Positions 12,037 through 53,391 of a DNA stretch of 64,000 nucleotides are shown here, piece after piece. How positions within the stretch are numbered: the first letter of the stretch is position 1; each line of letters starts with the position of its first letter. The notes below the pieces were generated by a model. The model did not search any database, was not told the origin of the DNA, and worked only from the letters and a program-made list of their open reading frames with translations. Both the position numbers and the translations under genes were made by a program. The stretch spans positions 1-64,000 of IMG/VR virus record IMGVR_UViG_3300027895_000001; one strand, 5' to 3'. Origin of the DNA: a virus.

Positions 12037-12055
12037 GATTGTTCTCCTTTTAGTG

Positions 12056-13543: not shown

Positions 13544-13546
13544 AAA

Positions 13547-13720: not shown

Positions 13721-13727
13721 GAGAGAA

Positions 13728-13757: not shown

Positions 13758-13780
13758 GGGAAATCTACTTGGAGATAACT

Positions 13781-14152: not shown

Positions 14153-14162
14153 AGGCTCCTCT

Positions 14163-35595: not shown

Positions 35596-36852
35596 ATGAG
35601 ACTATTTTCTCGCATTGCCGACTTTGAAGGCTCAAGGTACGAACGCCCTGCGGTATCGGCTACCCTCTTGTATTCGGCGCAAGTTACTGTTTGTATTGCA
35701 CTTACCGTTGATCCGGCCTTCGACCAGCTGAGCGCAACAACTCTTGCAGACCTTAGAGAGGACGTAGTTTACGATAACTTTTTTGTGGACAGCACAACTC
35801 TCCGCAAACTGAGGTTGTCAGGCGCCCTCGATGAGTACGCCGGCGGCACCATTATGCAGACGCCGTTCCAGTTCGCCCGCGTCAACGGCGGCGCCATCGC
35901 CCCCGGCTCAGACATCACGGTGCTGCAGAAGCAGATCATCGCTGCGACCGGATTCGTGCCCAAAGAGTACGTCGAGCAGATCCCGGTCAACCTGTGGCAG
36001 GTAGGCGTTATCAACGCTGGCCCCGCCGCCAAGGTGAAGATCATCGACGCCTACATGACCAACGCGGTCCAGGCAGCCAACACCGACCTCGGCATCGACA
36101 TCTTCCGCCACGGCCAAGCCTCTGGCACCACGATCCTCCAGAACCGCACTATCTTCATCAACGGAATCTCCGAAGCGCTGAACGACGGCATCAACAACTC
36201 GTGGGACGGCAATGTCTTCACGACCTACGGCGGCCAGACGCGCAACGGCGTCGTCGGCAACACCATGAACTCGGTCCCGATCTGGGTCGGCACCTCAACC
36301 GGCGCGACTGGCCAGATCACCTACAAGCCGCTCGTCGAAGCCTACCTCAACTGCGTCCAAGAGCCGGACCTCGGTGTGTGCAACAAGGCCCTCTACGCCT
36401 ACCTCCTCGAACGCCTAGAGCCGAAGCAGCGCTACGCCGAGGAGCAGGACGTGAACATGGGCATGGTGGGCATCCGCGTGATGAACGCGCTCATCATGGT
36501 CGACAAGCTCTGTCCGTCGACGAAATACGGCACGCTGCTCCCCGCTGGGCTGTCCCAGACGACCGCAGTGAAGCCAACCACGTTCACCTCGGCCACTCTC
36601 TCGGCGACACAGAACGCGATCTCGAACCTCCCGTCCGCGGTAACCATCAACCCCGGCGAGCCATTCTTCTGGCTCCGCACCAAGGGCTGGAAGGTACGTC
36701 CCACTACGGACCCGGAGTACAACTTCAACTTCACGCCGTGGGTGCGCTCGCAGACGAACCCGGATAACGTCGTGGGCTTCTTCAAAGTGGGCATCAACAT
36801 TTATTGCGTGTCACCGCGCGACAACGCGCAGGTATACGGAGCGGGATACTAA
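35596..36852 (+). CDS. major capsid protein (by position, size, expression signals)
   Basis: 418 aa with AAGGGAG RBS, downstream of the scaffold candidate. The capsid operon ends with the terminator at 37956. The first ~80 codons are AT-richer. Confidence 0.65.
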   Translation: MRLFSRIADFEGSRYERPAVSATLLYSAQVTVCIALTVDPAFDQLSATTLADLREDVVYDNFFVDSTTLRKLRLSGALDEYAGGTIMQTPFQFARVNGGAIAPGSDITVLQKQIIAATGFVPKEYVEQIPVNLWQVGVINAGPAAKVKIIDAYMTNAVQAANTDLGIDIFRHGQASGTTILQNRTIFINGISEALNDGINNSWDGNVFTTYGGQTRNGVVGNTMNSVPIWVGTSTGATGQITYKPLVEAYLNCVQEPDLGVCNKALYAYLLERLEPKQRYAEEQDVNMGMVGIRVMNALIMVDKLCPSTKYGTLLPAGLSQTTAVKPTTFTSATLSATQNAISNLPSAVTINPGEPFFWLRTKGWKVRPTTDPEYNFNFTPWVRSQTNPDNVVGFFKVGINIYCVSPRDNAQVYGAGY

Positions 36853-38003: not shown

Positions 38004-39026
38004 ATGTCATACCTGTCAATGCGAACCGAACTCCGAGGGTCCATCCCCAAACTTCCCTTTGCCTATTCCGGCACCCTCATCAACCGCGCCTGGCGTGCCA
38101 TCCGCGAGCGTAACCTGTGGTCGTTCCTCCTGTTCAACGGCCAGTGGATTGCGCCGCCACAATACACTGGTTCCTCGGCGGCTGCGACGCAGGGCTCGGC
38201 GACGATCACTCTCAGCGCGGCCGACTCTGCCGCCATTGCGGTCCTGCTCCCGACGCAACCTTACTCCCTCATTACGCAGCGCCAGTTCCGCATCGCGTCC
38301 TCAGGCCTCTACGACATCTGGGGATATGCGCCGAATGGCGGTGGCGCTGGCATCGCGACCCTGACCCTCGATCGCTGGTGGGGCGAGGCCCCTACCACAG
38401 GCTCGGCGTTCCAGATCTACCAGTGCTACTACGTCCCTACGTTCCTGAACGCGCCACTCACCGACTTCAAGTCGTGGATATCGATCCGCGACATGGCCGA
38501 CTTCCGCGCGCTCTATACCGACCGCCTCACCCGCGCCGACCTTGACCAGCGCGACCCGCAGCGCACATGGTACGGCATCCCAACAGACGTAGTTCCCTAC
38601 GCGCCCGACGCCAATCCCGCCTCCACTACCTACAACGTGATGCGGTATGAGTTGTGGGGCGCGCCGACCTTCAACCTCAACTACCAGCTCTACGGCATCC
38701 GCCACGGCCTCGACCTCGTCAACCCCGGTGACACGATCCCGTTCGCCGTGCGCGAGGAGACAGTGCTGGCGCTCGCTCGCGTCTACGCCTACGAGTGGGC
38801 CGAGGCGAACAAGGGTGACGCGCCGCGCAACGTCGGCCCGGACTTCCGCTACCTGATGGGCGAGTCGCGCAAAGCCTACGAGGCCCTGCTGCGACAGGAC
38901 CGGATGACCGACCGCGAGCAGGTGGATAACTTCTTCACCTCCCACCGTGTCAGCGCCGACGGCGAGTTTGGCTACTTCTTCAATAGTCAGGGCGGCGTTG
39001 CGTCCCCCGGCGGAGGTGTGTGGTGA
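38004..39026 (+). CDS. hypothetical virion protein (adaptor/neck candidate)
   Basis: 340 aa, GGCGGAG RBS, first gene after the terminator. Confidence 0.6.
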   Translation: MSYLSMRTELRGSIPKLPFAYSGTLINRAWRAIRERNLWSFLLFNGQWIAPPQYTGSSAAATQGSATITLSAADSAAIAVLLPTQPYSLITQRQFRIASSGLYDIWGYAPNGGGAGIATLTLDRWWGEAPTTGSAFQIYQCYYVPTFLNAPLTDFKSWISIRDMADFRALYTDRLTRADLDQRDPQRTWYGIPTDVVPYAPDANPASTTYNVMRYELWGAPTFNLNYQLYGIRHGLDLVNPGDTIPFAVREETVLALARVYAYEWAEANKGDAPRNVGPDFRYLMGESRKAYEALLRQDRMTDREQVDNFFTSHRVSADGEFGYFFNSQGGVASPGGGVW

Positions 39027-42000
39027 TGCGCCGCCTATGGCTCCCCCTGCTCCCGCTCGCGTTCCTGCTGCTGCCTCCTCACGCCGCCGCGCAATCCGTG
39101 GGCTCGTTCCAGCAGTGGTGCGTCGCCGGCGGCCAGATGGTCGGCGTCTCCGGCATCCAGTCCGTGAACCCGTTTCAGGCGTCCTATCCGCGCTGCCAGG
39201 TCAACGTGTACCTCACAGGTACGACCACCACCGCAACGATCTACTCGACCTCCACTCTCACGCCGCTTCAGAATCCCTTCTGCGCCAACCTCGACGGCTC
39301 GTTCCTGTTCTACGCCTCGCAGTCCGGGCAGTATGACGTGGTGATGTCGAACTCCAACGCGTGCAATCCGCCGCCGACCTACGCACAACTCCCTGCGTCG
39401 TTTACGTTCTTCGACGCGGCGGTATCTGGCACGGGCGGGGGCGGTGGTGGGAACGTTCCCGTGGGACCGCAATACACCTACCCGATATCCACCGGGATCG
39501 GCTTCACGTCACAAGTGCCAGTATTCGCGGACACCGCCAACTCCAGCATCGTCGCGGACGGCACCACCGACACCTGCACCACTTTCCAAGCGTGGATCAA
39601 CGCGCACCCCGGTCAGCGCCTGATGGTGCGGAAGGTGGCTGCGGCAACGCAGGGTGGCGGGACAGCCTCGACCATCGACTACTACTCATCCTGCACGCTT
39701 CATCTGACCTACAACGGCACGGTCCTCGAAGGCGTGCCGAACGACGACTGGCAGGGCGCTCCGGTCATCCTATTCGCAGCGGGCGTCACTGGCATCCAGA
39801 TCGACCCTTCCTGCTTCGGCTGCGCGATCAAGAATATGGAGATCGCTGGCGGCGGCAAGCCGTATGCGTCCGGCCTCGCCTGCTACAACTCCAATAACAC
39901 GCTTCTGTTCCCGTTCACGGGATCTGCGGATGGCATCCTCGTCTACGGTGGCGAGCCCACAATCGAGCACACCATCGCTGAGTGCTTCACCCGCGACGCC
40001 ATCCATATCGACGGCACCAACGTGTCGTTGAACGGCTATGTGGGTCAGCCAGACTATTGGAAGGTGCTCTACGGACAGGGCAATTCCAGCCAACATAGCG
40101 GATTGTATATCCACGGCGGTGACACGAACGATGGCTCTGAGACGCTGTTCAACACGTATGGCAATGGCGGCACAGGCGTAGAGGATGACAGCACTTCTAG
40201 CACGTCTCATCGCAATACCGGGACTCAAGGCAACGGACGGGACGCAAACATCGCCGCGCAACCTGTCTCTAACCTGTCGAGCATCTCCTGCACTACCTTC
40301 ACTTGTAGCGTGGTGACGGCGGCCCCGGTAACAGGTATCCAGAGCAGTATCTGGGTCGTGATCGCCGGGACGACCAACTACAACGGCGTCCACTACGTCA
40401 CTGGCTATAACGACTCTCAACATTTCTCGTTCGCGTGGGTCGCGCCATCGGCGGCGGCTGAGACATCTGGCACGGTCGGCGTGGATGGCTCGACGCACAT
40501 GTTCGCCAACGCCGTCCGCACGGTGAGCGACGCGGCTTGCACAGGAAGTCAAACACTTCTCACCTCACAATCGGCGCAGTTCGGCAAGGATACTCAGGTC
40601 GGCGCGACGATCAACATAGCTGGCGCGGGGAGTGCGGGATCTCTCCTCTCTACCACCATCGCATCGGTAACTAACGAATACTCCGTTACGCTCGCGGTGA
40701 ACTGCGCGACTACGGTATCGTCCGCTCAAGCCAGTTTCGGTGGAGGAATCAGCCACACGCCGATCATGGCGAACGGGAACTCGACCTGGATTAGCCCGTA
40801 CTGGGAATCGAATCAGCCAACAGCCAACATGGCGGGCACCACGGTTATTATCGGCGGCAATCTTAGCACGAACGGTAGTTATGGAACGCCGTTGACGTTC
40901 CAGAGTATCTCTAGCGGCTACGGAGTTCTTACTACCCAGAATCTTGAAATCGTCGATCCGGTGAATTCTGCCGGCGGCGCGCAGGTGCAGTGCGGCCTAA
41001 ATGCCAATCAGGACTGCGGCTTCACGATCTTCAACTACAACCAGAGCGCACAGTGGAAGATGTACGCAGTTGGATCAAGCAACGACCAAGAATTCTTTAT
41101 CAGGGACGGTAGTTCCGGCGGCGTCATTCCCTTCCAAACCACGCATGGCAGCACCACTGGCATCGTTGCCGCAACCAACATCTTCCTGACCGCAGGCGTG
41201 GGCTACCAGATTCAGACGGCGAACCAGATCGCCTCGACGCTCATTGGCTCTCCGCCGTTCGTCGTGGCCAGCAACATCGCCGTGGCCAACCTGAACGCCT
41301 CACTCCTGCTGGGTGGGACGTGGGCGTCGCCGGGCGCGGCGATCGGCACAGGGACGGCAGTCGCGGGAACATTCACCGCCCTGACGGATACAGCCCTAGC
41401 CGCTGGCGTAGGGAATTGCGTACAAGTCGGCACTGGAGGACTATTCACCTATACCGCCTCTCCATGCGGCTCCAGCGGCGGCTCCGTCACGACGACAGGC
41501 TCTCCGTCGAATGGCGAGCTAACCAAGTTCACCGGAGCCAGCTCCATCTCGAACGGCAACCTCTCCGGCGACGCCACGACCTCGAACACTCTCGTCGTGA
41601 CCGTCGTTGGCCTGAACGGCACCAACCTCGGTGGCCTCGCAACCGGTCTCCTGAAGAACACGACCTCAACCGGAGTCCCGACCATCGCCGTCGCAGGTAC
41701 AGACTACGTGATCCCGTCCGGCAGCATTACCGGCAACGCCGCGACCGCGACCGCCCTCTCCGCCTACACAGGCTACAGCATCTACGGCAGCGCAGCCACG
41801 ACTGGCTCGTGGATCACGCCCACCGCCAACGGCCAATGCCTGATGTCCGGTGCCAGCAGCTACGCATCTACGATCCCTAGCTTCCAGTCCTGCCCCGGCG
41901 GCGGTGGTGGTGGTATGACGTGGCCCACCAACGCCGGGATCGCTGTCTACGCCGGCAGCAGCGCGTGGGGTCCCTCGATCACGACCCTCGTCCCTGTCCC

Positions 42001-45000
42001 TCCCGGCTCATCGCAGAGCGCGATCCAAGCACTCCTGAGCGCCGCCAGTCCCGGCGAGGAACTCCTGTTCAGCGACACCTACACCGCCTGCGGCCTGACA
42101 CTGAGCGTATCCGACGTTACGCTCTACGGCCTCAACCAAGACGGCACGTCGATCCAGTGCGCCACGGCCAGCTCCCCCGTGCTGACCGTCAGCGGCAGCG
42201 GCGATCAGGTCGACGGGATGACCTTCAAGCACATCACCAACTCTCCAACGTGCCCCGGCGGCAACGGGACTTCAACCTGCGGGGACGGCTTGCAGATCGC
42301 GGGTGGTGCGAGCCGCGCCAAGATCATCAACGTCCATACGAACTTCAACTACAACGGTATCGCTCTAGGCTACACGACCTACAGCGAGTATTCGAACTCC
42401 GTCTCCGAGTACAACAACAATCACGGCGTCGTATTCGTGATGAGTTCCTCAACTCCGAACATGCAGTGGCAGGTGAGCCGAATCCTCTCCGAGCAGAACT
42501 TGGGCAACGGATTCGACATGACCTGTCCGGCTTCGTTCAGTTCCATCCACACGCCCGGACCCTACTTCACGGGATGGACGACGACCTACGGCAACGCGGG
42601 CTACGGCTACAACTTCTCCTGCTCCGCGGCGACGGCTTCTGGCATATCCGACGTGTGGATGAGCGCGGTATTCGCCTCCACGAATAACAACAGCGGATTC
42701 AACTTTGACTTCGGCTCGAATGGTGGCCGGAACAATATCGTATCCGGCGTCTACTCGGAGCAGAACGGTGCATACACGGGTCCTGCCGGATTCGCTCAGA
42801 CCACGCAGTCGGCGAGCAACGTGGGCAGCGGAATCAATATCACCTCCGCCTGTGACAACACCACGCCTCCGTCGATCACCGGCGGCGTGACGTGGCAAAA
42901 CTCCTACTCCGGTATCACGACCGCGTGCCCCGGCACGTCGATCAGCAACATCAGCGCATTCGACAATGGCTTCGCCTCGGCCAGTCCGCAAACCGAAGCG
43001 GGCGTGACGATCAACGCCACCAACGTCCAAGTAAACGGAGGGTATCTCAAGAAGGGCACGACGGAAATCTACGGCGTCTATGTACAAAGCGGCGATACAC
43101 CAAGCATATTCACCACCTGCGACTCTTCGATCAGCGTAGGCAATTGCGTCTACTCCGGATCGCAGCCAACCAACGGCTACCAGCAGCGCTTCGGGCAGGC
43201 GCGGTACATCACCGGGACGGGCGTACCGGGCATGACGTGCACGAACGGCGACAAGTACGAGCGCACCGACGCTGGCAACTTCGCCACCGACTACAGTTGC
43301 TCGAACAACGCTTGGACAACGGGTAGTGGTGGCGGATTCACGAACCCGATGACCACGCTCGGCGACATGATTTACGAGAACGGGACGCCGACCGCGGCGC
43401 GCCTCGCTGGCAGCACATCCGCGACGATGGCGGCCTTGACGCAGACGGGTACAGGGTCGATCAGCGCGGTGCCAGCGTGGATACTCTACGTGGGTGGTGG
43501 AACGAACCCAGTAGCGGCGACTGTATCCGGCGCGGCTCAGGGGCAGATTCTGGTCTATAACTCCTCGGGTGTGCTGATAAACGCCTACTCTGGCGTCAAC
43601 GTGGATTCACAGACGGGGAACTACGCGCTATCGTGCCCACTCGACCGCTTGGGAGAGATTGAGTTCAATATCTCCGCGCCAGCGACGCTCACGCTGCCGC
43701 AAGTGGGTTCGACCGCCTGCTTGGGATCGAACATCGCGTTCGCCGTTCGCAACACAGCCTCCTCGACTGCGACGCTGACGATCACGGCCACGACCTCCAC
43801 CTTCCAGCCGGAGAACGTCGCGTCACACACAATTCTCCCCGGCGCTGGCTTGCTCGTCTACTCTGACGCCAGCAGCGGCACTGGCAACTACCACGCGCTG
43901 GAAGCTCCGGCATCGTTCGGTGGAGTCAACACTCAGACCGGCACCTATACGCTGAACGCTGGCGACCGCAACAAGATGATCCTAATGAACTGCTCCTCCA
44001 GTTGCTCGGTCATCCTGCCAGCGACTCCGCCGAACTCGTCATGGACGGCGTGGATCAGTTCCATCGGCTCGACGACGCCAACGGTATCGCTGAACGGACT
44101 GAACTACAACGGTGGTGCGTCGGCTCCGATCCTGCTCAAGTACGTACCGATTGCGGTGCGGACGGACGGATCGAACTACTTCGGCGACGCGCCACTGGTC
44201 GCCGGGACTGGTATCTCGTTCGGGAATGCCGGCAATGGCCTGACGATCAACGTGGGATCATTCCCGCTGTCCAGCCTGACAGCGATTGCAAACAATACCC
44301 TCGTTGCCAACTTCACTTCCGGGTCGGCGTCTCCGGTGGCCTACGCGATGGCCAGTTGCAGCGGCAGCAACGACGCGGAAATATACACGACCAACACTGG
44401 CCTAGGATGCGGCACCAACTTCGCCCAACTCAACGTCGTGGAGACGTTCTCAGCGTTGCAGACGTTCGGCGCGTTCGCCTCCATCGGCGCGACGGCCCAC
44501 GGCGTCCTCTTGAGCGAGAACACGGGCGCGGTAGTGGCAACCGCAGCGGGTACCTCTGGCTACCCGCTGCTGAGCGGCGGCTCAATTGCGGATGGCGCAT
44601 ACGCGCAACTCGCGATTGGCGGCATTGCGACCTCCTCGATTAACGGCACAGACACGAAGCTCCAAAGTGGCACGGGTAGCTACACCACGAGCAACATGGC
44701 CTGTGGGGACGCGAATGGTGGCGTGACTCCCTGTACCACGACTCCCACCGACATGGTGCTGGGCAATGGCGTTACCGCGACTACGCAGACGGCGGGGGAC
44801 GCCAGCACGCTTGTGGCGACTGACGCCTTCGTGGCCACTGGGATCTCGAACGCTATCGCTGCGGTCAATCCTGCCGTGGCCGTCCTTGCCGCCTCGACCG
44901 CCTCCCTGATCGGCACCTATGCCAACGGTGCCAGTGGAGTCGGGGCCACCTTCACGGTGACTGCAACCGGAGCGTTCACTCTCGATGGCGTATCCATCGG

Positions 45001-46012
45001 CACGATCGGCCAGCGCGTCCTGCTGAAGAATCAATCCTCGGCGTTTCAGAATGGTATCTACATTGCTACCGTGGTCGGCACGACTGGCATCTCGCCTGTG
45101 TTCACCCGCGCCCTCGACTACGATCAGCCATCCGATATGAACAACACGGGCTCGATCCCGGTGCAGTCGGGCACGGTGAACGCAGCGACCTCATGGCTTC
45201 AGACTTCCACAGTGAATACGGTCGGTACGGACGCGGTGACCTTTACGCAGTTCAGCGTTAGCCCGTCCAACTTGGTCACCGCAGCGTCTCCGGGTGTTGG
45301 AATTGCCCACTTCGCAGGTTCGACGCAGGCTGTAACCTCCAGCCTGATCGTGGCTGCCGACATTACCGCCAACACGATCACCTCTTCCCAAGTTAATTCA
45401 ACCGTGGTCACCGATGTAGGCAACACGACCACTACTGCCAACAAGATGGCGACAAGCACGACCACAGCGGGCCTGATTAACTTCGTTGATTTTCCTGATG
45501 TGAAAATAGTTCCGGCTGTGAACTGCGTGAATGCGGTCGCCGGGTCCGCTTGGAACACCACCCTGACTCCAGCCTGCATCGGAGGCGCTAACAATCTTGG
45601 AGGCTATCTACCGTTCGTGGATGCTTCAGTGGCTCAGTTCGAATACGAACTGCCCTTGGATTGGGATACGGCTACTCAGCCCTATATCTCCGTCCACTTT
45701 CTCTCAAATACAAACACTAGTGGCACGGTGATCTTCCAAGCTGCTGTTGCCTGCTATAAATCGGATGGGTCAACTACATCCGATCCAACGTTTAATACCG
45801 CCGATGTGATGACAACTAAGACGATGGCTACCGCTACGCGCGGCTGGTCTACCAGTGTGCAGTCAACACAGGTAACAAGTGGAAACAGTTGTGTTCCCGG
45901 CGGCACGATGCTCATCAAAATCACCCGCAATACCGATACGGCTGCGGCGGCTGTCTGGGTGACGAAGGCCGTGATTACAACTCCGAGACTGACAACGGTG
46001 CAGGCAAATTGA
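39026..46012 (+). CDS. giant tail-fibre/tailspike-like protein with two beta-helix regions and a signal-peptide-like N-terminus
   Basis: - ATG 39026: TGATG junction, GGAGG 9 nt upstream.
- N-terminus MRRLWLPLLPLAFLLLPPHAAAQ.
- Fibre-type motifs ITGNAATATAL and NPMTTLGDMIYENGTPTAARLAGS.
- Beta-helix-like stretches near aa 180-400 and 980-1350. Confidence 0.8.
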   Translation: MRRLWLPLLPLAFLLLPPHAAAQSVGSFQQWCVAGGQMVGVSGIQSVNPFQASYPRCQVNVYLTGTTTTATIYSTSTLTPLQNPFCANLDGSFLFYASQSGQYDVVMSNSNACNPPPTYAQLPASFTFFDAAVSGTGGGGGGNVPVGPQYTYPISTGIGFTSQVPVFADTANSSIVADGTTDTCTTFQAWINAHPGQRLMVRKVAAATQGGGTASTIDYYSSCTLHLTYNGTVLEGVPNDDWQGAPVILFAAGVTGIQIDPSCFGCAIKNMEIAGGGKPYASGLACYNSNNTLLFPFTGSADGILVYGGEPTIEHTIAECFTRDAIHIDGTNVSLNGYVGQPDYWKVLYGQGNSSQHSGLYIHGGDTNDGSETLFNTYGNGGTGVEDDSTSSTSHRNTGTQGNGRDANIAAQPVSNLSSISCTTFTCSVVTAAPVTGIQSSIWVVIAGTTNYNGVHYVTGYNDSQHFSFAWVAPSAAAETSGTVGVDGSTHMFANAVRTVSDAACTGSQTLLTSQSAQFGKDTQVGATINIAGAGSAGSLLSTTIASVTNEYSVTLAVNCATTVSSAQASFGGGISHTPIMANGNSTWISPYWESNQPTANMAGTTVIIGGNLSTNGSYGTPLTFQSISSGYGVLTTQNLEIVDPVNSAGGAQVQCGLNANQDCGFTIFNYNQSAQWKMYAVGSSNDQEFFIRDGSSGGVIPFQTTHGSTTGIVAATNIFLTAGVGYQIQTANQIASTLIGSPPFVVASNIAVANLNASLLLGGTWASPGAAIGTGTAVAGTFTALTDTALAAGVGNCVQVGTGGLFTYTASPCGSSGGSVTTTGSPSNGELTKFTGASSISNGNLSGDATTSNTLVVTVVGLNGTNLGGLATGLLKNTTSTGVPTIAVAGTDYVIPSGSITGNAATATALSAYTGYSIYGSAATTGSWITPTANGQCLMSGASSYASTIPSFQSCPGGGGGGMTWPTNAGIAVYAGSSAWGPSITTLVPVPPGSSQSAIQALLSAASPGEELLFSDTYTACGLTLSVSDVTLYGLNQDGTSIQCATASSPVLTVSGSGDQVDGMTFKHITNSPTCPGGNGTSTCGDGLQIAGGASRAKIINVHTNFNYNGIALGYTTYSEYSNSVSEYNNNHGVVFVMSSSTPNMQWQVSRILSEQNLGNGFDMTCPASFSSIHTPGPYFTGWTTTYGNAGYGYNFSCSAATASGISDVWMSAVFASTNNNSGFNFDFGSNGGRNNIVSGVYSEQNGAYTGPAGFAQTTQSASNVGSGINITSACDNTTPPSITGGVTWQNSYSGITTACPGTSISNISAFDNGFASASPQTEAGVTINATNVQVNGGYLKKGTTEIYGVYVQSGDTPSIFTTCDSSISVGNCVYSGSQPTNGYQQRFGQARYITGTGVPGMTCTNGDKYERTDAGNFATDYSCSNNAWTTGSGGGFTNPMTTLGDMIYENGTPTAARLAGSTSATMAALTQTGTGSISAVPAWILYVGGGTNPVAATVSGAAQGQILVYNSSGVLINAYSGVNVDSQTGNYALSCPLDRLGEIEFNISAPATLTLPQVGSTACLGSNIAFAVRNTASSTATLTITATTSTFQPENVASHTILPGAGLLVYSDASSGTGNYHALEAPASFGGVNTQTGTYTLNAGDRNKMILMNCSSSCSVILPATPPNSSWTAWISSIGSTTPTVSLNGLNYNGGASAPILLKYVPIAVRTDGSNYFGDAPLVAGTGISFGNAGNGLTINVGSFPLSSLTAIANNTLVANFTSGSASPVAYAMASCSGSNDAEIYTTNTGLGCGTNFAQLNVVETFSALQTFGAFASIGATAHGVLLSENTGAVVATAAGTSGYPLLSGGSIADGAYAQLAIGGIATSSINGTDTKLQSGTGSYTTSNMACGDANGGVTPCTTTPTDMVLGNGVTATTQTAGDASTLVATDAFVATGISNAIAAVNPAVAVLAASTASLIGTYANGASGVGATFTVTATGAFTLDGVSIGTIGQRVLLKNQSSAFQNGIYIATVVGTTGISPVFTRALDYDQPSDMNNTGSIPVQSGTVNAATSWLQTSTVNTVGTDAVTFTQFSVSPSNLVTAASPGVGIAHFAGSTQAVTSSLIVAADITANTITSSQVNSTVVTDVGNTTTTANKMATSTTTAGLINFVDFPDVKIVPAVNCVNAVAGSAWNTTLTPACIGGANNLGGYLPFVDASVAQFEYELPLDWDTATQPYISVHFLSNTNTSGTVIFQAAVACYKSDGSTTSDPTFNTADVMTTKTMATATRGWSTSVQSTQVTSGNSCVPGGTMLIKITRNTDTAAAAVWVTKAVITTPRLTTVQAN

Positions 46013-47790
46013 TGCGACGACTATTACTCATATTAGTATTGCTGTGCTCGCTGCCGTCTTGGGCAACGTGGACTAAAACTAATCAGGGGGTGTCCACTTA
46101 TACGGGCACAGGTACGACTGCTAAGTCCGCAGCGGCATTCAGTTCTGCTCTGAACAATCCCAGTCTTATTGTCGTTAGATGCTTGGCACTGGTTCCGTTT
46201 TCTACCTCAGGATCAACAACTGTATTCGCCGTTCCGACCGACACGGCTGGGAATACTTACGTGGACATTCAAGTAGGTCTAACTGGATTCGATACTACGC
46301 AGCAAACGATAGAGACGTTTTACGCTCTGAACACACATACGACGGCCAGCAATGTTGTGACGTGTCACAGCAATGCCGGTAGTCTGACATTCTTTTCTAC
46401 CATAGCCACGGAATTTACCGGTGGGGCTACCTCCGGTCCAATAGACACCAAGTTCTACAACAACGAGCAAACGTCTGGCGCGTCCGGCTCAAACTCGTTG
46501 GTACTTGGCGCTCAGTCTCAGTGGCCCCCCACTGTTAACGGGGACTTGATCGTCGCGGTATTCGGCAACGGCAACGATGGCGGCTTGAGCGCAGGCACTT
46601 CGCCGAACGCCTTTACGCAGATTTCTAATTCTGCGGGCGAGTTTGAATATTTCGTGCAGACGACCGCCGCCGCGATTCAGCCGACTGCCGGCGATACAAA
46701 CTCCAGCGATCTGTGGGGCGGCATGTGGGTGGCCTTTACTCCGAGTGGAACGTCCGCCAAACCGACCAACCAATTCAGAAATGACGTATGCACACAGGCG
46801 GACGGAACGTCGCTTTCGAATAACTGGATACTGAAGCACTGTCAACAGGTGACCAGTGATGGTCTAAACACGCTTAGTTCGCAAATGACATTGCTAACTA
46901 ATCCCACTGTTGGCGACCTCCTAGTGTGGTATAACGAAACCTTCCCACAAAACGGCAAGGTAACGACGGCGGATAGTCTCGGCAATGTGGCTACAGGCAA
47001 GGTGACCCAAACCGCTCCACACACGATTACATTTTCAAGCGGCATACCATTTTCGATGGCTGGATGCAGTTCATCCTCGGGAAGTTCTTGTGACTGGAAC
47101 GGAAAGACTATTGTAGTCAATGGATCGTCTCTGACGATCAATGCGGTCAGTTCCTTTACCAGTTTGACAGTGACCAACACGATCTCAACGAATGCTACCC
47201 CGGTGGCATATACCGGCCCCGGCCCCTCGTGCACCGATGTAGAACCTCTCCAAGCTATCAGCCTGTCTGCATGTATGGCCTTCGTACAGAATACGGGAAC
47301 GGATGTGGTAACGGTAACCACTACCGGAGTCAGCAATTTTGATGTGGGCACTGTATCAATAGAACTAGCTTATAACGGCGGGGTAGTAACCGGACTGGAT
47401 ACAGGGGCCTGCACGAATGCGAATTGTCTAGCTTCCACTACGACCAGCAACGGGACCACTGGAGTATTCTCGCAAACCATGACCTTGAGTGGGGTAGGGG
47501 AGTTGGTGATGACGGCAGGAGATGGAGTCAATGGTCCAATCGGACCCGGCAGCGGATTCTCTGGGTTGGTTATAGGATCGACCAGTGGAACTCTGTCCAA
47601 TCCCTACTGCACGGGTTCGTCTCCTTTCTGTCTGAATGGAGTAAATAGTGCCGCTAAGTCCTCGGCGTCTTCAGGGAGTTTTACCGCCAGCTTAATTGAC
47701 GCTAGTTTGGGAGATGACGTGGTGATCGAGTCTCTTGCCTTTACGGGAGCTTCAACCACTTCTCCCTACATGCCTCCGGTGGTGTATTAA
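46012..47790 (+). CDS. fibre-associated protein with signal-peptide-like N-terminus
   Basis: ATG 46012 (TGATG junction). N-terminus MRRLLLILVLLCSLPSWATW. Ser/Thr/Gly-rich and beta-type. Confidence 0.65.
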   Translation: MRRLLLILVLLCSLPSWATWTKTNQGVSTYTGTGTTAKSAAAFSSALNNPSLIVVRCLALVPFSTSGSTTVFAVPTDTAGNTYVDIQVGLTGFDTTQQTIETFYALNTHTTASNVVTCHSNAGSLTFFSTIATEFTGGATSGPIDTKFYNNEQTSGASGSNSLVLGAQSQWPPTVNGDLIVAVFGNGNDGGLSAGTSPNAFTQISNSAGEFEYFVQTTAAAIQPTAGDTNSSDLWGGMWVAFTPSGTSAKPTNQFRNDVCTQADGTSLSNNWILKHCQQVTSDGLNTLSSQMTLLTNPTVGDLLVWYNETFPQNGKVTTADSLGNVATGKVTQTAPHTITFSSGIPFSMAGCSSSSGSSCDWNGKTIVVNGSSLTINAVSSFTSLTVTNTISTNATPVAYTGPGPSCTDVEPLQAISLSACMAFVQNTGTDVVTVTTTGVSNFDVGTVSIELAYNGGVVTGLDTGACTNANCLASTTTSNGTTGVFSQTMTLSGVGELVMTAGDGVNGPIGPGSGFSGLVIGSTSGTLSNPYCTGSSPFCLNGVNSAAKSSASSGSFTASLIDASLGDDVVIESLAFTGASTTSPYMPPVVY

Positions 47791-50700
47791 ATGCGTCATC
47801 TACTCATCATCGTCGCTTTGATGGGTTCGGCGTTCGGAACCTGCCATACGGTTAGCCCGGCGGGTACTGGAACGAAATCTGGAGCAGACTGGAACAATAC
47901 AATGCAGTGGTCCGCGATTACATTTACACGCGGAGATTCTTATTATTTGCAAGTCGGAAGCTATGGGAGTCGGACGTTCTCAGTGGCAGATAGCGGCACC
48001 AGCATAATCACGATCAAGGCCGTGACATCCAGCGACAATTGCACTTCGACCGGATTCAATGCAGGTACGATGGTCGGCCAAGCGGTGTTCACGGCTCCGC
48101 TGTCGTTTGCCACGGATTATTGGGTTCTTACTGGAGTCTATCGCAGTACTGCCACAGGCAACCCAATGATCGACTGGGTGCTTGAATCCGGTTACGGATT
48201 CAAAATCAATAATCAAGTTGCGCAATCCGGCACGAGTATAAACGGCGGCAGTGGTTACAGCGGAGCCACCTGCGGAAGTCTGTCAGCATGCAGCGCGGCA
48301 GGAATGTTCGTTCACGACATCACGCTATCCTATTTGGACATCAATGGAGCACATACCAAGACGGACGCAGGGGACATCGACAACGGCATTGACTTCGAGG
48401 GTGGATCATACAACATCGACTACTCGCATATCTATCTTCACGACGCCGCTGTGCCATTCTTCTTGCGAGGCAATCACGCGGATCAAGCTGGAGGGGGCTA
48501 TTGGTTTGGAACAGGAGATAGTAACACGGTTGAATATACCTATGTCCAAAACAATTACAGTTCTCCCACTTATCACAGCGAGGCGTGTTCCTGCTCGGAA
48601 GGGCTGACCAACTTTACCTGGCGTTATAACGTGACCGACCAGATTGGCGGAGTCGGAAGCAATGGAGCCACGGCTCACCTCGGCACCGCATCCGGCGCGG
48701 ATTACAACAGTGGCAACGGCATCAATGGTCCCTGGTTCATATACGGGAACATCTTTACCTGCTCATCGACGAACGCTAATCAGAACTGCGCTGTCGGAGA
48801 CGGGGCACTGGCGATCTGGGACGCATCCTTCACGGACGGAACAGTCTATTTTCTCAACAATACCATTTATGACATTGGCCCTCATAGTCTTGAAGGCGCG
48901 TTCGGCATCGGGCTGGCATACACGACGCCTTTCACCACAATGGTGGTTGAAAACAATCTGTTCTACGACAACGATCCCATGTCGGTGATCGCCAACGGTA
49001 CGACCAGCTACAACGGAGCGACATTCAGTCCGGGAGTCACTTGGGGATACAACGCTTACTTTGATACTCCGAGTGCGGGATCGTCCGACGCGGACAGCCA
49101 TAAACAGGTGTCGGCTACAAATCCGTTCAATAATAGCGGGGCGTGTTGTTCTTTGACCTCCGATACCATGGCGGGGATCAATACAGGTAGCGTGCTTGCC
49201 GCAAATAATACGGACATGCTTGGCGTGACGCGCGGCGCGAATGGAACTATTGACCGGGGAGCATTGCAGATCTCAGGTGCCTCCCCTATCTACTCCGCGC
49301 GCACGGATCTCAACGTGGCCAAACTCGGCCCCATTGTCCCCAACGTCGGTAATCTCGTAGGCGCCGGCACGGCGGTCACGGACGACATGGGTAACAACCT
49401 TCGCACCCTGCGCCTGTCGGACGCGAACTTCGATTCCGCGTCGAATCCGAACGACAGTTACACGACGGCTGCGTCCGGCTCCGGTGACATGAACATCTTC
49501 TCGAAGCCGTTCACCTACCAGGGCCATACTCACGCGCTGATGTGCATTCAGGAGTCGGGCACACTCTCCTACTTCGTGGACGTGGACGAACTGACGCTGG
49601 CGATCACGCGACCGTATACGTCCGGCTCGGCTCACGGAGGGCTGACCGGACCAGCCGCTACCTGCTCATGGGGCCACACGAATTACAAGGCGTATTTCAT
49701 TCACGGAAATACGCTGTGCGCGTTCGACTTCACGAACTGGGTAAGTGGATCGCGGCTAACCGCGCCAAGCTGCACCGTCCTGTTCGATTTCACGGAGCAG
49801 ACGAACGGCCTACCCAACTACAATCCCGGCGTCTACAACTGTCTGCCGTCTTCCGCCTATGGCTCACCAACGTGGGTGGACGACACGTCGTCGACGAACG
49901 ACGACCAACTATTCGCGAGCGCGTGGTCCGTGTCGGGGTCGCAGGGCACGGGATTCATCTTCGCCGTCTATAAAGTCGGCTCAGGGTGTTGGGCGATCAA
50001 CACGGAGACGGGCGTCGTTACGGGAGATTGGGGCACGACAGGCACGGCCACGCTCCCGGTCGCTGGGGGGTGGTTTATTCACTCCCAGAAGCTATCCCAC
50101 AACGATACCTACGGCATCATCGACTGCACCGGCAATGGCAACGGTTGCACGGGATTGCCGTTTATAGTCCAGATTGGGACACTGAACGTCTTTGCCGCGA
50201 CGCAGACGCCGAACTCCGGTGGGCATACAGTCACCGGTAATCTGACATTTATCAATAACTACAACTCACCCATCGGCCAGCAGGCCAAAAGATCGCTCAC
50301 AAGCGTGAGCAGTCCATCGAATCTCTACGCTTCGAATCAAATCCCCAGTGGGATTGGTGTCACCTTTGATCTCCATCAGGGCTGGAATAACGTCGATGCT
50401 TTGGATTCTCTACCGTTCTTTCAAACGACGTGGCGGCCGAGTCAGGACACGGTTTGTGGTGTGGTGAGCACTTCAGGACAGAATGTAACGTTGCTTGCTG
50501 GGCATGTATTCACGACTTCGTGGACCGGATCGGTGGACATCGGTGGCCAGGCGTATACGATCTCGACGGTGCCGACCACGGGCACGATGACCACGACGAC
50601 CGCGCCACCAACGACCGCCAACACGACTTACTGCTACCCTGCCATATCCTTCGGTTGGATCATGGAGGTGCAGGCGGTGGTGCCGGGGACGGGAGTAACA

Positions 50701-50988
50701 TACCGCTTCGGCCATTGCAACAATACCGGCTCCGACGCGCGGTTCTTCACCACGCAGGAGTGCATCGGGGAGATTTCGCAGGACGGCAACCTCTATGCGT
50801 TCACCTCCGACTGGCTTGGTACGCTAGGGTCCAGTTCTGGTGGGACGACTTGCACCACAACTTCTAATTGCCGCTCGGACGTGTTCGTGACACAATTGCA
50901 GCCATTCGTCGTCGCTCCGGTAACTGGGGTGGGAGCGACAATAGCCGACAACGAATCGAAACAGATTTCACATGGAGGGACGCAATGA
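47791..50988 (+). CDS. right-handed beta-helix (pectate-lyase-fold-like) protein with signal-peptide-like N-terminus, depolymerase candidate
   Basis: N-terminus MRHLLIIVALMGSAFGTC. CHTVSPAGTGTKSGADWNN start typical of beta-helix proteins. NNTIYD / ENNLFYDN repeat-like elements. Confidence 0.7.
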   Translation: MRHLLIIVALMGSAFGTCHTVSPAGTGTKSGADWNNTMQWSAITFTRGDSYYLQVGSYGSRTFSVADSGTSIITIKAVTSSDNCTSTGFNAGTMVGQAVFTAPLSFATDYWVLTGVYRSTATGNPMIDWVLESGYGFKINNQVAQSGTSINGGSGYSGATCGSLSACSAAGMFVHDITLSYLDINGAHTKTDAGDIDNGIDFEGGSYNIDYSHIYLHDAAVPFFLRGNHADQAGGGYWFGTGDSNTVEYTYVQNNYSSPTYHSEACSCSEGLTNFTWRYNVTDQIGGVGSNGATAHLGTASGADYNSGNGINGPWFIYGNIFTCSSTNANQNCAVGDGALAIWDASFTDGTVYFLNNTIYDIGPHSLEGAFGIGLAYTTPFTTMVVENNLFYDNDPMSVIANGTTSYNGATFSPGVTWGYNAYFDTPSAGSSDADSHKQVSATNPFNNSGACCSLTSDTMAGINTGSVLAANNTDMLGVTRGANGTIDRGALQISGASPIYSARTDLNVAKLGPIVPNVGNLVGAGTAVTDDMGNNLRTLRLSDANFDSASNPNDSYTTAASGSGDMNIFSKPFTYQGHTHALMCIQESGTLSYFVDVDELTLAITRPYTSGSAHGGLTGPAATCSWGHTNYKAYFIHGNTLCAFDFTNWVSGSRLTAPSCTVLFDFTEQTNGLPNYNPGVYNCLPSSAYGSPTWVDDTSSTNDDQLFASAWSVSGSQGTGFIFAVYKVGSGCWAINTETGVVTGDWGTTGTATLPVAGGWFIHSQKLSHNDTYGIIDCTGNGNGCTGLPFIVQIGTLNVFAATQTPNSGGHTVTGNLTFINNYNSPIGQQAKRSLTSVSSPSNLYASNQIPSGIGVTFDLHQGWNNVDALDSLPFFQTTWRPSQDTVCGVVSTSGQNVTLLAGHVFTTSWTGSVDIGGQAYTISTVPTTGTMTTTTAPPTTANTTYCYPAISFGWIMEVQAVVPGTGVTYRFGHCNNTGSDARFFTTQECIGEISQDGNLYAFTSDWLGTLGSSSGGTTCTTTSNCRSDVFVTQLQPFVVAPVTGVGATIADNESKQISHGGTQ

Positions 50989-51395
50989 GACTACTTCGCG
51001 CCGTACCGCTAGTGTTTGCGTTGATGTATTCGTGCCACGCACAGAACGGGCCTTCACAGCCGTCTGTAGTGCTCACATGGACACAATCCACCACAGCAGG
51101 CGTGACCAAGAACTGTGTGTACCGAGGCACGGCTTCAGGGACGTATGTGCTGCCGGGTACGTGCATTCCTGTGGCCACAACTTATACGGACACGACTCCT
51201 ACGGCCGGGACGACTTATTACTATGCCGTCACCGCGCAAGTCTCTGGCGTTGAGAGTGCGTATTCGACTCCAGTGCAGGTAGCGGTCCCGGCGAATCCAG
51301 CCGCGCCAACGGGACTGGCTGCGCCAACGGTTGCGAAGAATGAAGAGGGCAACGGGATCGTAGTGCAGGCGAAGGTCGAATGGAAGAAACCATAA
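50985..51395 (+). CDS. fibronectin type III domain protein with signal-peptide-like N-terminus
   Basis: ATGA overlap, GGAGGG RBS. N-terminus MRLLRAVPLVFALMYSCHAQ. FN3 pattern LTWTQS...YRGTASGTY...TTYYYAVTAQVSGVESAYS. Confidence 0.65.
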   Translation: MRLLRAVPLVFALMYSCHAQNGPSQPSVVLTWTQSTTAGVTKNCVYRGTASGTYVLPGTCIPVATTYTDTTPTAGTTYYYAVTAQVSGVESAYSTPVQVAVPANPAAPTGLAAPTVAKNEEGNGIVVQAKVEWKKP

Positions 51396-51407: not shown

Positions 51408-51890
51408 ATGAACTGGCACGAGATATGGTTGTGGTTATGGTTCATGCTCGGAATGTTCACCTATTGGCTGAAGCGGGCCTACTATGGCATCAATCCGCCG
51501 AATCCGGTCGCTACTGGATATCTCAACTATGTTCAGCGGTCATGGGTGCCGCTGCTCGTGCGTGCCTTCCTTGAGAGCCTTATATTCTGGATCATGTTCA
51601 CGCCCGGACTCGCCGACCAAGTGCTGGGGTATTTCGGCTGGACGAGTTACGCGTCTGTGGTGCAACTAACAACGCGAAATGCGCCCGTCGCCGCAGTGTT
51701 CGGCCATACACTCGATTCGATTACAGATTTCGCAGTGAGCAAGATCCCGTTCATCAATGGTATGTTGCCGCAGATGCCGGGGCCGCTGCCACAACAAGCC
51801 ATCGTCCAAGCGGAGATTGTGAAACAGACTACGCAGGTAACGCAACTCCAAACCACAACCACAACCGTCCCACCGGAGGCTACAAAATGA
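51408..51890 (+). CDS. multi-pass membrane protein (holin candidate)
   Basis: AAGGGGG RBS. Hydrophobic segments IWLWLWFMLGMFTYWL and WVPLLVRAFLESLIFWIMF. Confidence 0.5.
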   Translation: MNWHEIWLWLWFMLGMFTYWLKRAYYGINPPNPVATGYLNYVQRSWVPLLVRAFLESLIFWIMFTPGLADQVLGYFGWTSYASVVQLTTRNAPVAAVFGHTLDSITDFAVSKIPFINGMLPQMPGPLPQQAIVQAEIVKQTTQVTQLQTTTTTVPPEATK

Positions 51891-52042
51891 TCTCTATCAT
51901 ATTGCTCGTGTTCGCATTCGTGCTCGCATGCGTGGCGTCAAGATGGAACCCGCCAAACTGGGCGCTGGGGTGGCTGGCGTTCGCCTGCTACATCCTGAGC
52001 CTGTTGCTGGGCGGTAACGGACTGGGATCGCATTTTCACTGA
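51887..52042 (+). CDS. small two-TM membrane protein (51 aa)
   Basis: Not in the track. ATGA overlap. Reads MISIILLVFAFVLACVASRWNPPNWALGWLAFACYILSLLLGGNGLGSHFH. Confidence 0.4.
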   Translation: MISIILLVFAFVLACVASRWNPPNWALGWLAFACYILSLLLGGNGLGSHFH

Positions 52043-52046
52043 TCTA

Positions 52047-52433
52047 ATGGCGGAAACCGTCAATCAATCGAACGAAGGTTCAGTAGCTCGCATCTCAGTA
52101 CTGGAGGAGCGGGTCTCTGGCGTCAAAGAGGTTATGGATGAGAGGGATCGTCGCTATGAATCCCGCTTCACGGCGATGGACGAGAAAACCTCTTTGGCTC
52201 TTAACTCCAGCGAAAAGGCGGTTACTAAAGCTGAAGTCGCGCAGGAGAAACGCTTCGACAATACGAACGAATGGCGTGCTGCAATGCAGGACCGGGACCG
52301 GAACCAAATGCCAAGAGTCGAAATCGAACAACGATTCTCGGCCATGAAAACGCAACAGAACTGGACCATCGGGATATGTATTACTTTATTTCTCGGTATA
52401 GCAGGACTGTTAATGACCCTACTGAGGCACTAG
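52047..52433 (+). CDS. coiled-coil protein with C-terminal TM anchor
   Basis: 128 aa; C-terminus WTIGICITLFLGIAGLLMTLL. Confidence 0.55.
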   Translation: MAETVNQSNEGSVARISVLEERVSGVKEVMDERDRRYESRFTAMDEKTSLALNSSEKAVTKAEVAQEKRFDNTNEWRAAMQDRDRNQMPRVEIEQRFSAMKTQQNWTIGICITLFLGIAGLLMTLLRH

Positions 52434-52442
52434 CGCGATGAT

Positions 52443-52610
52443 ATGCCCGACACCCCAGAGCGCCGTAGCCGAGAGCGGTTGGAACTCGAACTGCGCGAAC
52501 TGGAGCACTGGCTCGTCGTGTGCAAGGGTATGGCGGAACTGAGTCAATACGTGCCGATCATCACAGGCAGGATTAACGTCTTGAAGAATACTTTGGAGAA
52601 ACTAAAATGA
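52443..52610 (+). CDS. hypothetical small helical protein
   Basis: Not in the track. Reads MPDTPERRSRERLELELRELEHW.... The stop overlaps the next ATG (ATGA 52607-52610). Confidence 0.4.
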   Translation: MPDTPERRSRERLELELRELEHWLVVCKGMAELSQYVPIITGRINVLKNTLEKLK

Positions 52611-53314
52611 GCGCACCCGCAGGAATGACCGACATTCGAGAATACATGCAGCCCGACGATTCGTGGTCGTCGGAATTTCACTTGGCCGTCGCTGGGGCTG
52701 GAGGCCAGCCGGAGTACACGATTGTCCAGAATGGCATGATCTGGGACATGAAAGGCGCGAAGGGATTTCCGTGGGATGGCAATTCCTTCGACGAGGCGTA
52801 CATCTACCAGTCGATCACGGAGGTCGATCCTACGTCGTGGACCGATCCGACTGCGTTCAAGATATTCGCCTCGAAGTCATGGCCGGGGAAAAACGGTGCA
52901 ATCGCCTGGGCTCCGCGCTATTTCCTCGAAGGCGGATTCAATCCGCCGATCATCACACCGGACTCGACATTCCGCATCTATCCTGGCAATGGAGCCGCGT
53001 TCACGACTGCCACTTTGGGCGGCCCGATTATGACTAAGGTGGAGGGTCCGTACTTGATCAACTTCGGCGGCGACCTCGGCGTCCGGAACGCGATCATACA
53101 GAGTTACTTCTGGGGGGCGGGATTTGCCAACATGGAGAAGAACTACTTCATTATGACCGCGCCGGGGCAGCCCAGCGGGCACTGCCAGTGGGAACTGTGG
53201 AAGCTAACGAACGGAGTCTATGTGTTGAGCCAAACGAGCGCGTTCAATACGATCGTGGCAGGCGGAGCTCCGGCGCTGGACTTCCCCTCCGCGATGCCGT
53301 CAATACTGCCGTAG
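52607..53314 (+). CDS. hypothetical protein
   Basis: 235-aa track ORF; no motif recognised. Confidence 0.6.
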   Translation: MSAPAGMTDIREYMQPDDSWSSEFHLAVAGAGGQPEYTIVQNGMIWDMKGAKGFPWDGNSFDEAYIYQSITEVDPTSWTDPTAFKIFASKSWPGKNGAIAWAPRYFLEGGFNPPIITPDSTFRIYPGNGAAFTTATLGGPIMTKVEGPYLINFGGDLGVRNAIIQSYFWGAGFANMEKNYFIMTAPGQPSGHCQWELWKLTNGVYVLSQTSAFNTIVAGGAPALDFPSAMPSILP

Positions 53315-53391
53315 GAGGCTTGTCCCGATTTCGTAACAAGAACAGAAGTGCCTACTTCGAGGCTCGGGAAGGGATAGAAAGGAAGGCGTGG

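Follow-up and report, generated by a model that had tools for sequence, protein, structure and literature searches.

Introduction

The prevailing view of tailed phages is that all virion parts fold, and are put together, in the reducing environment of the cytoplasm. The window analysed here, a stretch of 64,000 nucleotides (positions 1 to 64,000 of the IMG/VR virus record IMGVR_UViG_3300027895_000001), covers almost the entire genome of a tailed phage that is very divergent and has ~60% G+C. Four consecutive genes on its plus strand, termed g1 to g4 (39026-51395), encode proteins whose N-termini behave as genuine Sec export signals, a conclusion supported by the family-wide conservation of the n-, h- and c-regions of these leaders and by the cysteine content of the proteins. 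What is new here is a tailspike/depolymerase module furnished with a predicted export route.

Virion proteins with Sec signals are known from filamentous phages, in which pVIII and pIII carry such signals, pIII has disulfide-bonded domains and assembly takes place at the envelope. Inoviruses, however, extrude through the envelope without a cytoplasmic capsid, whereas the present phage has an HK97-type head and terminase-packaged DNA. Sec-exported and signal-arrest-release (SAR) endolysins, such as Lys44 of fOg44, are tailed-phage proteins that enlist the host Sec machinery and build up outside the cytoplasm ahead of lysis (PMC6116005). These are small lysis enzymes and never virion components, in contrast to the proteins described here, where the signals are placed on huge tailspike/depolymerase proteins. 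A tailspike fold is exported across the inner membrane in Pantoea stewartii, where WceF is a trimeric β-helix enzyme that degrades exopolysaccharide (EPS) (PMC7949094). WceF carries a twin-arginine translocation (Tat) signal and is the product of a host gene in an EPS cluster, whereas g1-g4 have Sec-type leaders and belong to a phage structural operon. In the literature searched there is no report of signal-bearing tail fibres or tailspikes of tailed phages, the only mentions being of endolysins, cellular proteins (WceF, Bdellovibrio) and methods.

The closest structurally described spikes are those of the cyanopodophages Pan3 (9VYG/9VYH) and Pam1 (7EEQ). Like g1 they have an N-terminal β-sandwich, with the motif ...V.VY.TGT...A.IYsd....L.NPf.An..G.f, which in these phages docks the spike trimer on the tail machine and is followed, as in g1, by an enzymatic or fibrous distal part. 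In Pan3 and Pam1 the domain starts at about residue 1-20 (profile position 30 corresponds to chain residue 20), leaving no room for a leader. In contrast, g1 and its family carry a 19-22-residue signal peptide and a conserved Cys pair, and the similarity to the two known spikes is remote (20-30% identity). A second known system is the tail fibre (orf22) of the Legionella podophage LME-1, resolved in the portal-tail complex, where six trimers of it are placed on a T7-like tail (9EFK; PMC12407071). Residues 250-444 of this fibre are homologous to g1 residues 1937-2134, the likeness being confined to this one distal segment, and the text of the LME-1 paper does not mention signal peptides (PMC12407071). 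The sole cultured relatives in the phage collection are the Tunturiibacter phages Tunturi_1 and Tunturi_2 (PP887698, PP885685), podoviruses of Acidobacteriota from Arctic soil (PMC11924767). Both display the same architecture and core genes as the present phage, with signal-bearing large proteins 3' of the tail gene gp11, followed by lysis genes.

Predicted signal peptides of g1 to g4

All four genes lie on the plus strand, immediately 3' of a gene (38004-39026, plus strand) for a 340-residue core tail protein with 33% identity to the Tunturi_1 gp11 'tail protein', here called gp11-like. The product of g1 (39026-46012, 2328 residues) begins with MRRLWLPLLPLAFLLLPPHAAA, followed by predicted cleavage before Gln; g2 (46012-47790, 592 residues) begins with MRRLLLILVLLCSLPSWA, cleaved before Thr; g3 (47791-50988, 1065 residues) with MRHLLIIVALMGSAFG, cleaved before Thr; and g4 (50985-51395, 136 residues) with MRLLRAVPLVFALMYSCHA, cleaved before Gln. 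These N-termini and lengths had been quoted in an earlier note on this DNA, and all were exact on re-reading. The start codons are certain because stop and start codons overlap or abut along the chain gp11-like-TGATG-g1-TGATG-g2-TAAATG-g3-ATGA-g4, in which the stop of the gp11-like gene overlaps the start of g1 (TGATG), and because GGAGG ribosome-binding sites are placed 5' of g1 and g4.

At these coupled starts all four proteins score as signal peptides by a heuristic of our own, and the basic n-region, hydrophobic h-region and small-residue c-region that the note had described were found in every leader. The g1 signal peptide (39026-39091, plus strand) comprises 22 residues, with the n-region MRR, the h-region LWLPLLPLAFLLL and the c-region PPHAAA, while the signals of g2, g3 and g4 comprise 18, ~16 and 19 residues, respectively. 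The basic n-regions are MRR- in g1 and g2, MRH- in g3 and MRLLR- in g4. The hydrophobic cores, of 13, 11, 8 and 9 residues in g1 to g4, are bounded by Pro or Gly at the h/c boundary, and cleavage is predicted at AAA/Q, SWA/T, AFG/T and CHA/Q. A run of four such genes, among ~6 signal-bearing genes in ~70 genes, has a probability of ~1e-3. Tunturi_3, a podovirus of the same host strain as Tunturi_1, has no tail or fibre protein with a signal, and the heuristic is therefore not indiscriminately positive. The possibility that the host imposes signals on the fibres of all its phages was rejected on the same observation.

Other types of N-terminal element were considered. Although the leaders of g1 and g2 contain RR, they are short (18-22 residues) with Leu-rich cores and a Tat signal was rejected; since only 23 of 118 family representatives carry RR, the leaders are of Sec rather than Tat type. 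A membrane anchor was likewise rejected, the h-regions of 8-13 residues being too short. A lipobox ([LVI][ASTVI][GAS]C) is absent from g1, g2 and g4, while g3 has a non-canonical ...SAFGT-C18 and several g3 homologues show ...AAG/C or ALG/C at the end of the leader. No sorting signal of the PEP-CTERM or a similar type is visible at the four C-termini, and no internal start codon with a Shine-Dalgarno sequence was found 3' of the signal in any of g1-g4.

Conservation of the leader across the family

The arrangement is repeated in Tunturi_1, in which gp12, gp13, gp14, gp16 and gp17, located 3' of gp11, share this type of leader (for instance MKKFIQLALLFILPAAASA, cleaved before Gln; the leader of gp14 is counted from an internal Met), with a clustering probability of ~1e-4. 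The gp11-like protein has 37 relatives in IMG/VR, through which 37 related viral contigs were gathered, and most of these present a signal-bearing gene either directly 3' of the gp11-like gene or 3' of an inserted sugar-modification cassette. The signal is followed by a conserved domain with the pattern G-W-C-E-x-G ... P-x-C-x-V-x-V-Y. A search with the mature N-terminal domain (N-domain) against 1.84 billion cluster representatives returned 2,290 matches at E<=1e-3, 653 of them at E<=1e-10. In nearly all of the best 150 of these 2,290 representatives the domain starts at residue 19-30; 139 have both the signal and the Cys pair, nine have truncated leaders that reflect mis-called starts, one is ambiguous and one is signal-less.

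Leader statistics were drawn from 118 representatives that are <50% identical to one another. The median leader comprises 19 residues, with a net charge of +2 in 93/118, and in 102/118 the first Cys is found 7-10 residues beyond the cleavage site. Ala occupies position -1 in 92/118 and Gln position +1 in 63/118; the heuristic itself demands small residues at -3 and -1, such that only the preference for Ala and the Gln at +1 count as independent evidence. Signal peptides are present on all detectable homologues of g1 and g2. For g3, 13 of 23 homologues carry a signal according to the heuristic and several more have long leaders that it misses.

Cysteine content and its link to the signal

The mature proteins contain 44 (g1), 12 (g2), 24 (g3) and 2 (g4) Cys residues, all even numbers and mostly arranged as close pairs. 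Cys residues make up 2.03% of mature g1-g4, but 1.08% of 18 proteins of this phage that lack a signal (Fisher p=4e-5). Similarly, the signal-bearing proteins of Tunturi_1 reach 2.07% against 0.51% (p=5e-12), with even counts in four of the five. The native tailspike of P22, which folds in the cytoplasm, has no disulfides.

Signal and cysteines are also lost together. The pair C1...C2 is kept in 20/20 signal-bearing N-domains, whereas at least C1 is lost in 7/7 signal-less N-domains, which come from three independent lineages; in one of these lineages a remnant c-region 'GFAQ' can still be read (MQAYTGFAQ/QGD). Among full-length orthologues the median Cys content is 0.46% without a signal and 2.06% with one (Mann-Whitney p=4e-5), and Cys counts are even in 13 of the 16 complete signal-bearing orthologues. 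The loci found in bacterial genomes repeat the pattern, with signal-less 'MQKLQGFAQAGD' copies that lack C1 and complete signal-bearing spikes that have 20, 6, 10, 22 and 20 Cys residues. In addition, the single clear signal-less copy among the best 150 representatives lacks C2. Such repeated, coupled losses of signal and cysteines are hard to explain unless the signal leads the protein to an oxidising compartment. Judged by the leaders and the cysteines together, genuine export of g1-g4 is very probable.

One relative, L020, displays two tandem spikes with the same anchor domain (10984-15273 of that locus). The first has the signal and the Cys pair; the second has neither a signal nor the anchor Cys pair and has 12 Cys residues elsewhere. 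This could be a phage that uses both assembly routes.

g1 has the organization of a tailspike

The mature N-domain of g1 (39092-39424, plus strand), with the Cys pair C32/C57, is a predicted β-sandwich assigned as a tail-binding anchor module by profile and model matches. Its hidden Markov model (HMM) profile matches the N-termini of the 9VYG/9VYH 'Tail spike protein' and the 7EEQ 'Tailspike head-binding domain' (E=0.0045-0.03). In the AlphaFold2 model the predicted local distance difference test (pLDDT) score exceeds 90 over residues ~50-130, and with this model Foldseek retrieves from the PDB, as top matches, the tail complexes of the cyanopodophages Pan3 and Pam1 (probability 1.00, E=2e-3 to 2e-2, template modelling score 0.3-0.5). 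In BFVD the model matches the N-termini of many phage tailspikes and depolymerases, including 15 tailspike matches at E<=1e-3.

The spike gene is syntenic 3' of the gp11-like gene in most loci. Across 22 loci, the N-domain and the gp11-like gene diverge in parallel (Spearman 0.66), while the distal parts of the spikes are uncorrelated with this gene (0.04-0.13) and have a mean identity of about 0.16. Homology to Tunturi_1 gp12 likewise covers only the first ~90 mature residues of g1, and the distal parts of g1 and all of g2-g4 are unrelated to this phage. The loci compared display a classical pattern, in which a conserved anchor is joined to exchangeable receptor-binding modules. The gp11-like protein, for which no PDB or Pfam match was found, is the candidate docking partner of the spike. 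PDB sequence searches with g2, g3 and the gp11-like, gp30-like and gp31-like proteins (the last two are core virion proteins described below) were empty or returned noise, and because of this result for the three core proteins the docking partner was not found structurally.

Two distal parts of g1 have recognizable relatives. The module at residues ~170-760 (approximately 39536-41305, plus strand) contains the motif 'ADGTTDTC..FQAWI' and shares 50-65% identity with signal-bearing proteins of Acidobacteriota chromosomes, for example those of Ca. Sulfotelmatobacter; it is presumably a β-helix of the depolymerase type. One chromosomal relative of this module lies in an island without capsid or terminase among the Pfam-annotated neighbours within 10 kb. 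Residues 1937-2134 (44834-45427, plus strand) form the segment homologous to the LME-1 tail fibre (phmmer E=2.5e-29 to 9EFK). The classical fibre motifs that the note had pointed to are indeed in place, GNAATATAL at residue 903 and TTLGDMIY...RLAGS at 1443/1459. Moreover, in this nearly complete genome no variable large receptor-binding candidate other than g1-g3 is present. By its domains, g1 is probably a virion component.

A 1390-residue signal-bearing fibre-like protein with the central module of g1 is encoded in a chromosomal island of a 423-kb metagenome-assembled contig (L044/L045, 10001-20935), located between gyrA/PASTA/RsmB genes and an IS110 transposase. It adjoins a 1559-2060-residue protein, in surroundings without phage structural genes, and may be a surface fibre of the cell or belong to a decayed prophage.

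The g2, g3 and g4 proteins

No fold could be assigned to g2; its residues ~20-244 make up a module also present in other signal-bearing proteins. The g3 protein has no anchor domain. Its N-terminal domain (residues ~16-500) is common to many bacterial secreted proteins, in which it is joined with Big_2, Big_7, Laminin_G_3 or Beta_helix domains; some of these relatives are found on contigs of up to 1.1 Mb, one of them (P0021) in a plainly cellular neighbourhood. The AlphaFold2 model of g3 displays a right-handed β-helix at residues ~40-495 (pLDDT 60-90), while the C-terminal half is modelled unreliably (pLDDT <35). Foldseek matches of the model (6QPS, 7C7D, 5OLQ, 7W1C and 6FI2; E=2e-4 to 2e-2) are to PL6 alginate lyases, a GH87 glucanase, a rhamnogalacturonan lyase, a Klebsiella capsule lyase and the periplasmic depolymerase VexL, at a root-mean-square deviation of ~10 Å that is too coarse for placing catalytic residues. 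According to this model, g3 looks like a secreted β-helix polysaccharide lyase or hydrolase of cellular type. Homology searches bear out the link to host exoprotein genes that the note had raised, chromosomal secreted proteins of Acidobacteriota being nearest to g3 and to the putative central β-helix of g1.

The g4 protein has weak PHROG matches to Ig-like regions within tail proteins (E=4e-5 to 4e-4) and no Pfam match even at E<=5, and is possibly Ig/FN3-like. Thus, the description of all four as fibre/β-helix genes holds for g1, by its motifs and homologies, and for the N-terminal half of g3, by its fold; it does not extend to g2, for which no fold is assignable, and the FN3 label of g4 is weak. 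The G+C content at third codon positions (GC3) is 0.80-0.86 in the core structural genes and 0.82 in the g1 anchor, and falls to 0.54 in g2 and 0.60 in both the N-terminal half of g3 and g4. These low values therefore suggest a later, recent horizontal acquisition.

Genome and neighbouring genes

The g1 gene is also found in identical form on a 64,580-base contig. The window includes genes for the large terminase (TerL; 27627-29870), a probable portal protein (30498-32534) and the major head protein (35596-36852, 30% identity to that of Tunturi_1), with a family-A-type DNA polymerase on the opposite strand. Pfam gives almost no matches among the window proteins, and Pfam and PHROGs together give nothing for g1-g3 or for most neighbouring genes. 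The core genes are syntenic with those of Tunturi_1 at 25-40% identity (TerL, gp2, portal, major head protein, gp10, gp11, gp30 and gp31). The gp30-like (55834-57159) and gp31-like (~57170-61351) core virion proteins, both on the plus strand, have 29% and 40% identity to the respective Tunturi_1 'structural proteins' and are Cys-poor and without signal peptides. An open reading frame starting at 56924 is over-extended, as it is Arg-rich and overlaps the gp30-like gene, while homology to Tunturi_1 gp31 starts at ~57170, right 3' of the gp30-like stop at 57159. Two HNH/endonuclease VII-type genes (35033-35581 and 61348-61812, plus strand) are inserted within the structural module, one just 5' of the major head protein gene and the other 3' of the gp31-like gene; in Tunturi_1 an HNH gene likewise lies between the portal and head genes. 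A fifth signal-bearing protein is encoded on the minus strand at 20313-20762, in the early/replication region and opposite to g1-g4. It comprises 149 residues, with MTRFLTLALLCGTALA cleaved before QLPDAP and a mature part without Cys, and could be a superinfection-exclusion or envelope-acting factor.

Scanning of the genome collection with the g1 N-domain sequence alone gave no match. The first N-domain alignment was too divergent for patterns; a tighter alignment, used as the query, gave eight matches, all in Acidobacteriota or unclassified genomes, including the Tunturiibacter gelidiferens M8UP28 chromosome and metagenome-assembled genomes of Sulfotelmatobacter, Bryobacterales, Acidobacteriaceae and Terracidiphilus. 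The names on members of the N-domain clusters (Terriglobales, Sulfotelmatobacter) agree with Acidobacteriota. Several of these loci display the order major head protein, gp11-like, spike, and are therefore prophages of this phage family. The locus of the cultured strain M8UP28 (L048, NZ_CP132939.1 6160327-6180602) encodes a 419-residue protein with signal and N-domain and 6 Cys residues, beside an integrase and a repressor-like gene. The spike gene is followed by three more open reading frames, one of them with a signal peptide, and no capsid genes lie within 10 kb; the element may be one end of a prophage, a remnant or a satellite.

Directly 3' of g4 (51408-52433, plus strand) are genes for a 160-residue multi-transmembrane protein, a 51-residue holin-like protein with two transmembrane segments and a 128-residue coiled-coil protein with a C-terminal transmembrane segment and a weak XhlA match. 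These genes are probably a lysis cassette. Further along the same strand follow a DUF5675 protein without a signal peptide (54083-54478, E=1.7e-33) and a lipoprotein with the lipobox IIMAGC (~54475-55056), which probably have lysis or envelope functions. No classical lysozyme or amidase was found in the 51408-55056 cassette. If the endolysin is this DUF5675 protein, which is made without an export signal, lysis would depend on holin lesions. In Tunturi_1 the same order is seen, with the signal-bearing block followed by lysis-type genes.

At 61939-63375 (plus strand) lies a fusion of Methyltransf_24 and glycosyltransferase-2. Apparent sugar-modification genes are inserted between the gp11-like gene and the signal-bearing spike in L014, L017, L018, L024, L029, L030 and L032, judged by eye from NAD-dependent epimerase-like and glycosyltransferase-like N-termini. 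Their products might glycosylate the spike or modify host surface glycans. In Tunturi_4 (PP885687), an unrelated Tunturiibacter siphovirus, neither the core tail proteins nor the annotated tail fibre has a signal, and signals occur on gp113 ('tail protein') and gp114 ('virion structural protein'), two large proteins encoded 3' of the tail fibre and assembly genes (83651-87324; L041 33651-37324).

Discussion

The full reading of the locus is that g1-g4 form the tailspike/depolymerase module of a Tunturi_1-like podophage of Acidobacteriota, that their leaders are genuine cleavable signals for Sec and signal peptidase I, that the proteins acquire disulfide bonds in the periplasm after export, and that g1 joins the particles after the membrane has been breached. 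Taken as a whole this reading is evenly poised, and its last step, spike attachment after membrane breach, we hold with a little less assurance than that. Since g1 would be a virion-type spike and yet exported, it would meet cytoplasmic particles only after holin breach or lysis. In outline, g1-g4 would be translated late in infection from a single coupled operon and pass SecYEG unfolded; the leaders would be cut at AxA/Q, and many disulfide bonds would form as the proteins fold in the oxidising periplasm. Docking of the g1 anchor domain on spike-less particles already filled with DNA would have to await the opening of the inner membrane by the holin, or lysis. The g3 protein, and probably g2 and g4, would either be carried by g1 or work on the thick host EPS as free enzymes, in the periplasm or outside the cell. 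Such late docking is physically plausible because P22 tailspikes turn spike-less particles infectious in vitro and canonical holin lesions are very large. More tentatively, the family may practise a two-compartment assembly, with heads and tail cores made in the cytoplasm and Sec-exported spikes added when the holin opens the inner membrane. It would then be a very large family, so far restricted to Acidobacteriota, in which sister lineages reverted to cytoplasmic spikes by deletion of the signal and loss of the cysteines.

Several points weigh against this proposal. To our knowledge, spike attachment after membrane breach is without precedent in tailed phages. The signal-less orthologues indicate that the same anchor works from the cytoplasm, and export is therefore not mechanistically required for assembly. 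The second, signal-less spike of L020 (L020b) still has 12 Cys residues and is the lone exception to the Cys-density rule, and the Cys statistics across homologues are not phylogenetically independent, kinship being uncorrected. The signal calls come from a home-made heuristic and not from a trained predictor. The PDB matches of the N-domain are statistically modest, though HMM and Foldseek agree, and the closest relatives of g3 are cellular exo-enzymes, which fits a non-virion role at least for this protein. Finally, the paper on the Tunturi phages gives no virion proteomics and does not mention signal peptides (PMC11924767).

The most serious alternative, which we nevertheless regard as unlikely, is that g1-g4 are soluble exo-enzymes only. 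They would cut or remodel host EPS or lipopolysaccharide and never enter the virion, their N-domain binding an envelope component and not the tail, and the benefit would be easier release, prevention of re-adsorption by the progeny or exclusion of other phages. The genuine export signature is as expected for such enzymes, as are the g3 N-terminal half and the putative g1 β-helix module, which are common to chromosomal secreted proteins in cellular neighbourhoods. The signal-bearing block adjoins lysis-type genes in both phages, the core tail and fibre proteins of Tunturi_4 are signal-less while two extra large neighbours carry signals, and the GC3 of g2, g3 and g4 departs from that of the core genes. 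The earlier note had proposed exported soluble products rather than, or in addition to, virion parts. The export signature speaks for the first half of that proposal, but for g1 the substitution of a soluble for a virion role is at odds with the anchor module, which resembles the tail-binding modules of solved podovirus tail machines, with its co-evolution with and translational coupling to a core tail gene, and with the segment homologous to a virion-resolved fibre. Moreover, in sister phages the position of g1 is taken by orthologues that are Cys-poor and have no signal, and without g1-g3 the genome would be left with no variable receptor-binding candidate. The description of the Tunturi phages, which reports clear plaques and does not mention halos, is uninformative on a diffusible depolymerase (PMC11924767).

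A dual destination, in which each gene would yield an exported and a cytoplasmic form through inefficient export, late saturation of Sec or internal initiation, is a good deal less probable. The cytoplasmic fraction would build virions and the exported fraction would be free depolymerase, which would reconcile a virion-type anchor with an export signal. Free and virion-bound depolymerase pools are known for other phages, and L020 encodes signal-bearing and signal-less spikes in tandem. However, g1-g4 lack an internal start preceded by a Shine-Dalgarno sequence 3' of the signal, and the link between signal and Cys pair, together with the even Cys counts, argues that the functional fold needs an oxidation that the cytoplasmic fraction would not receive.

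The least probable alternative, which we consider very doubtful, is that the N-termini do not serve export but are vestiges of host genes or assembly or tethering elements (an uncleaved inner-membrane signal-anchor or a hydrophobic tail plug) of spikes assembled in the cytoplasm; tailed-phage dogma, the evident exchange of modules with host secreted proteins and the functioning of signal-less orthologues speak for it, but vestiges would decay, whereas the n/h/c organization and AxA/Q are kept across hundreds of clusters <50% identical, loss of the signal is accompanied by loss of the Cys pair, hydrophobic cores that end in Pro or Gly after 8-13 residues do not reach the length of a stable anchor, and the high, even and paired Cys content is atypical of cytoplasm-folded tailspikes such as that of P22. 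The assembly role that had been suggested for the hydrophobic N-termini is thus unlikely, also because signal-less orthologues stand at the same genomic position.

If spikes are indeed attached outside the cytoplasm, several consequences would follow, and a cultured system is at hand in Tunturi_1 and Tunturi_2 on Tunturiibacter psychrotolerans X5P2. The receptor-binding proteins and depolymerases of Acidobacteriota phages would call for periplasmic or oxidising expression systems, and the annotation of many 'hypothetical' signal-bearing giant proteins in soil viromes would change. Tailed-phage assembly would gain a new step, taken at or after membrane breach. This would explain how soil phages gain very stable, disulfide-rich spikes and borrow glycanase modules from the secreted proteins of their hosts.

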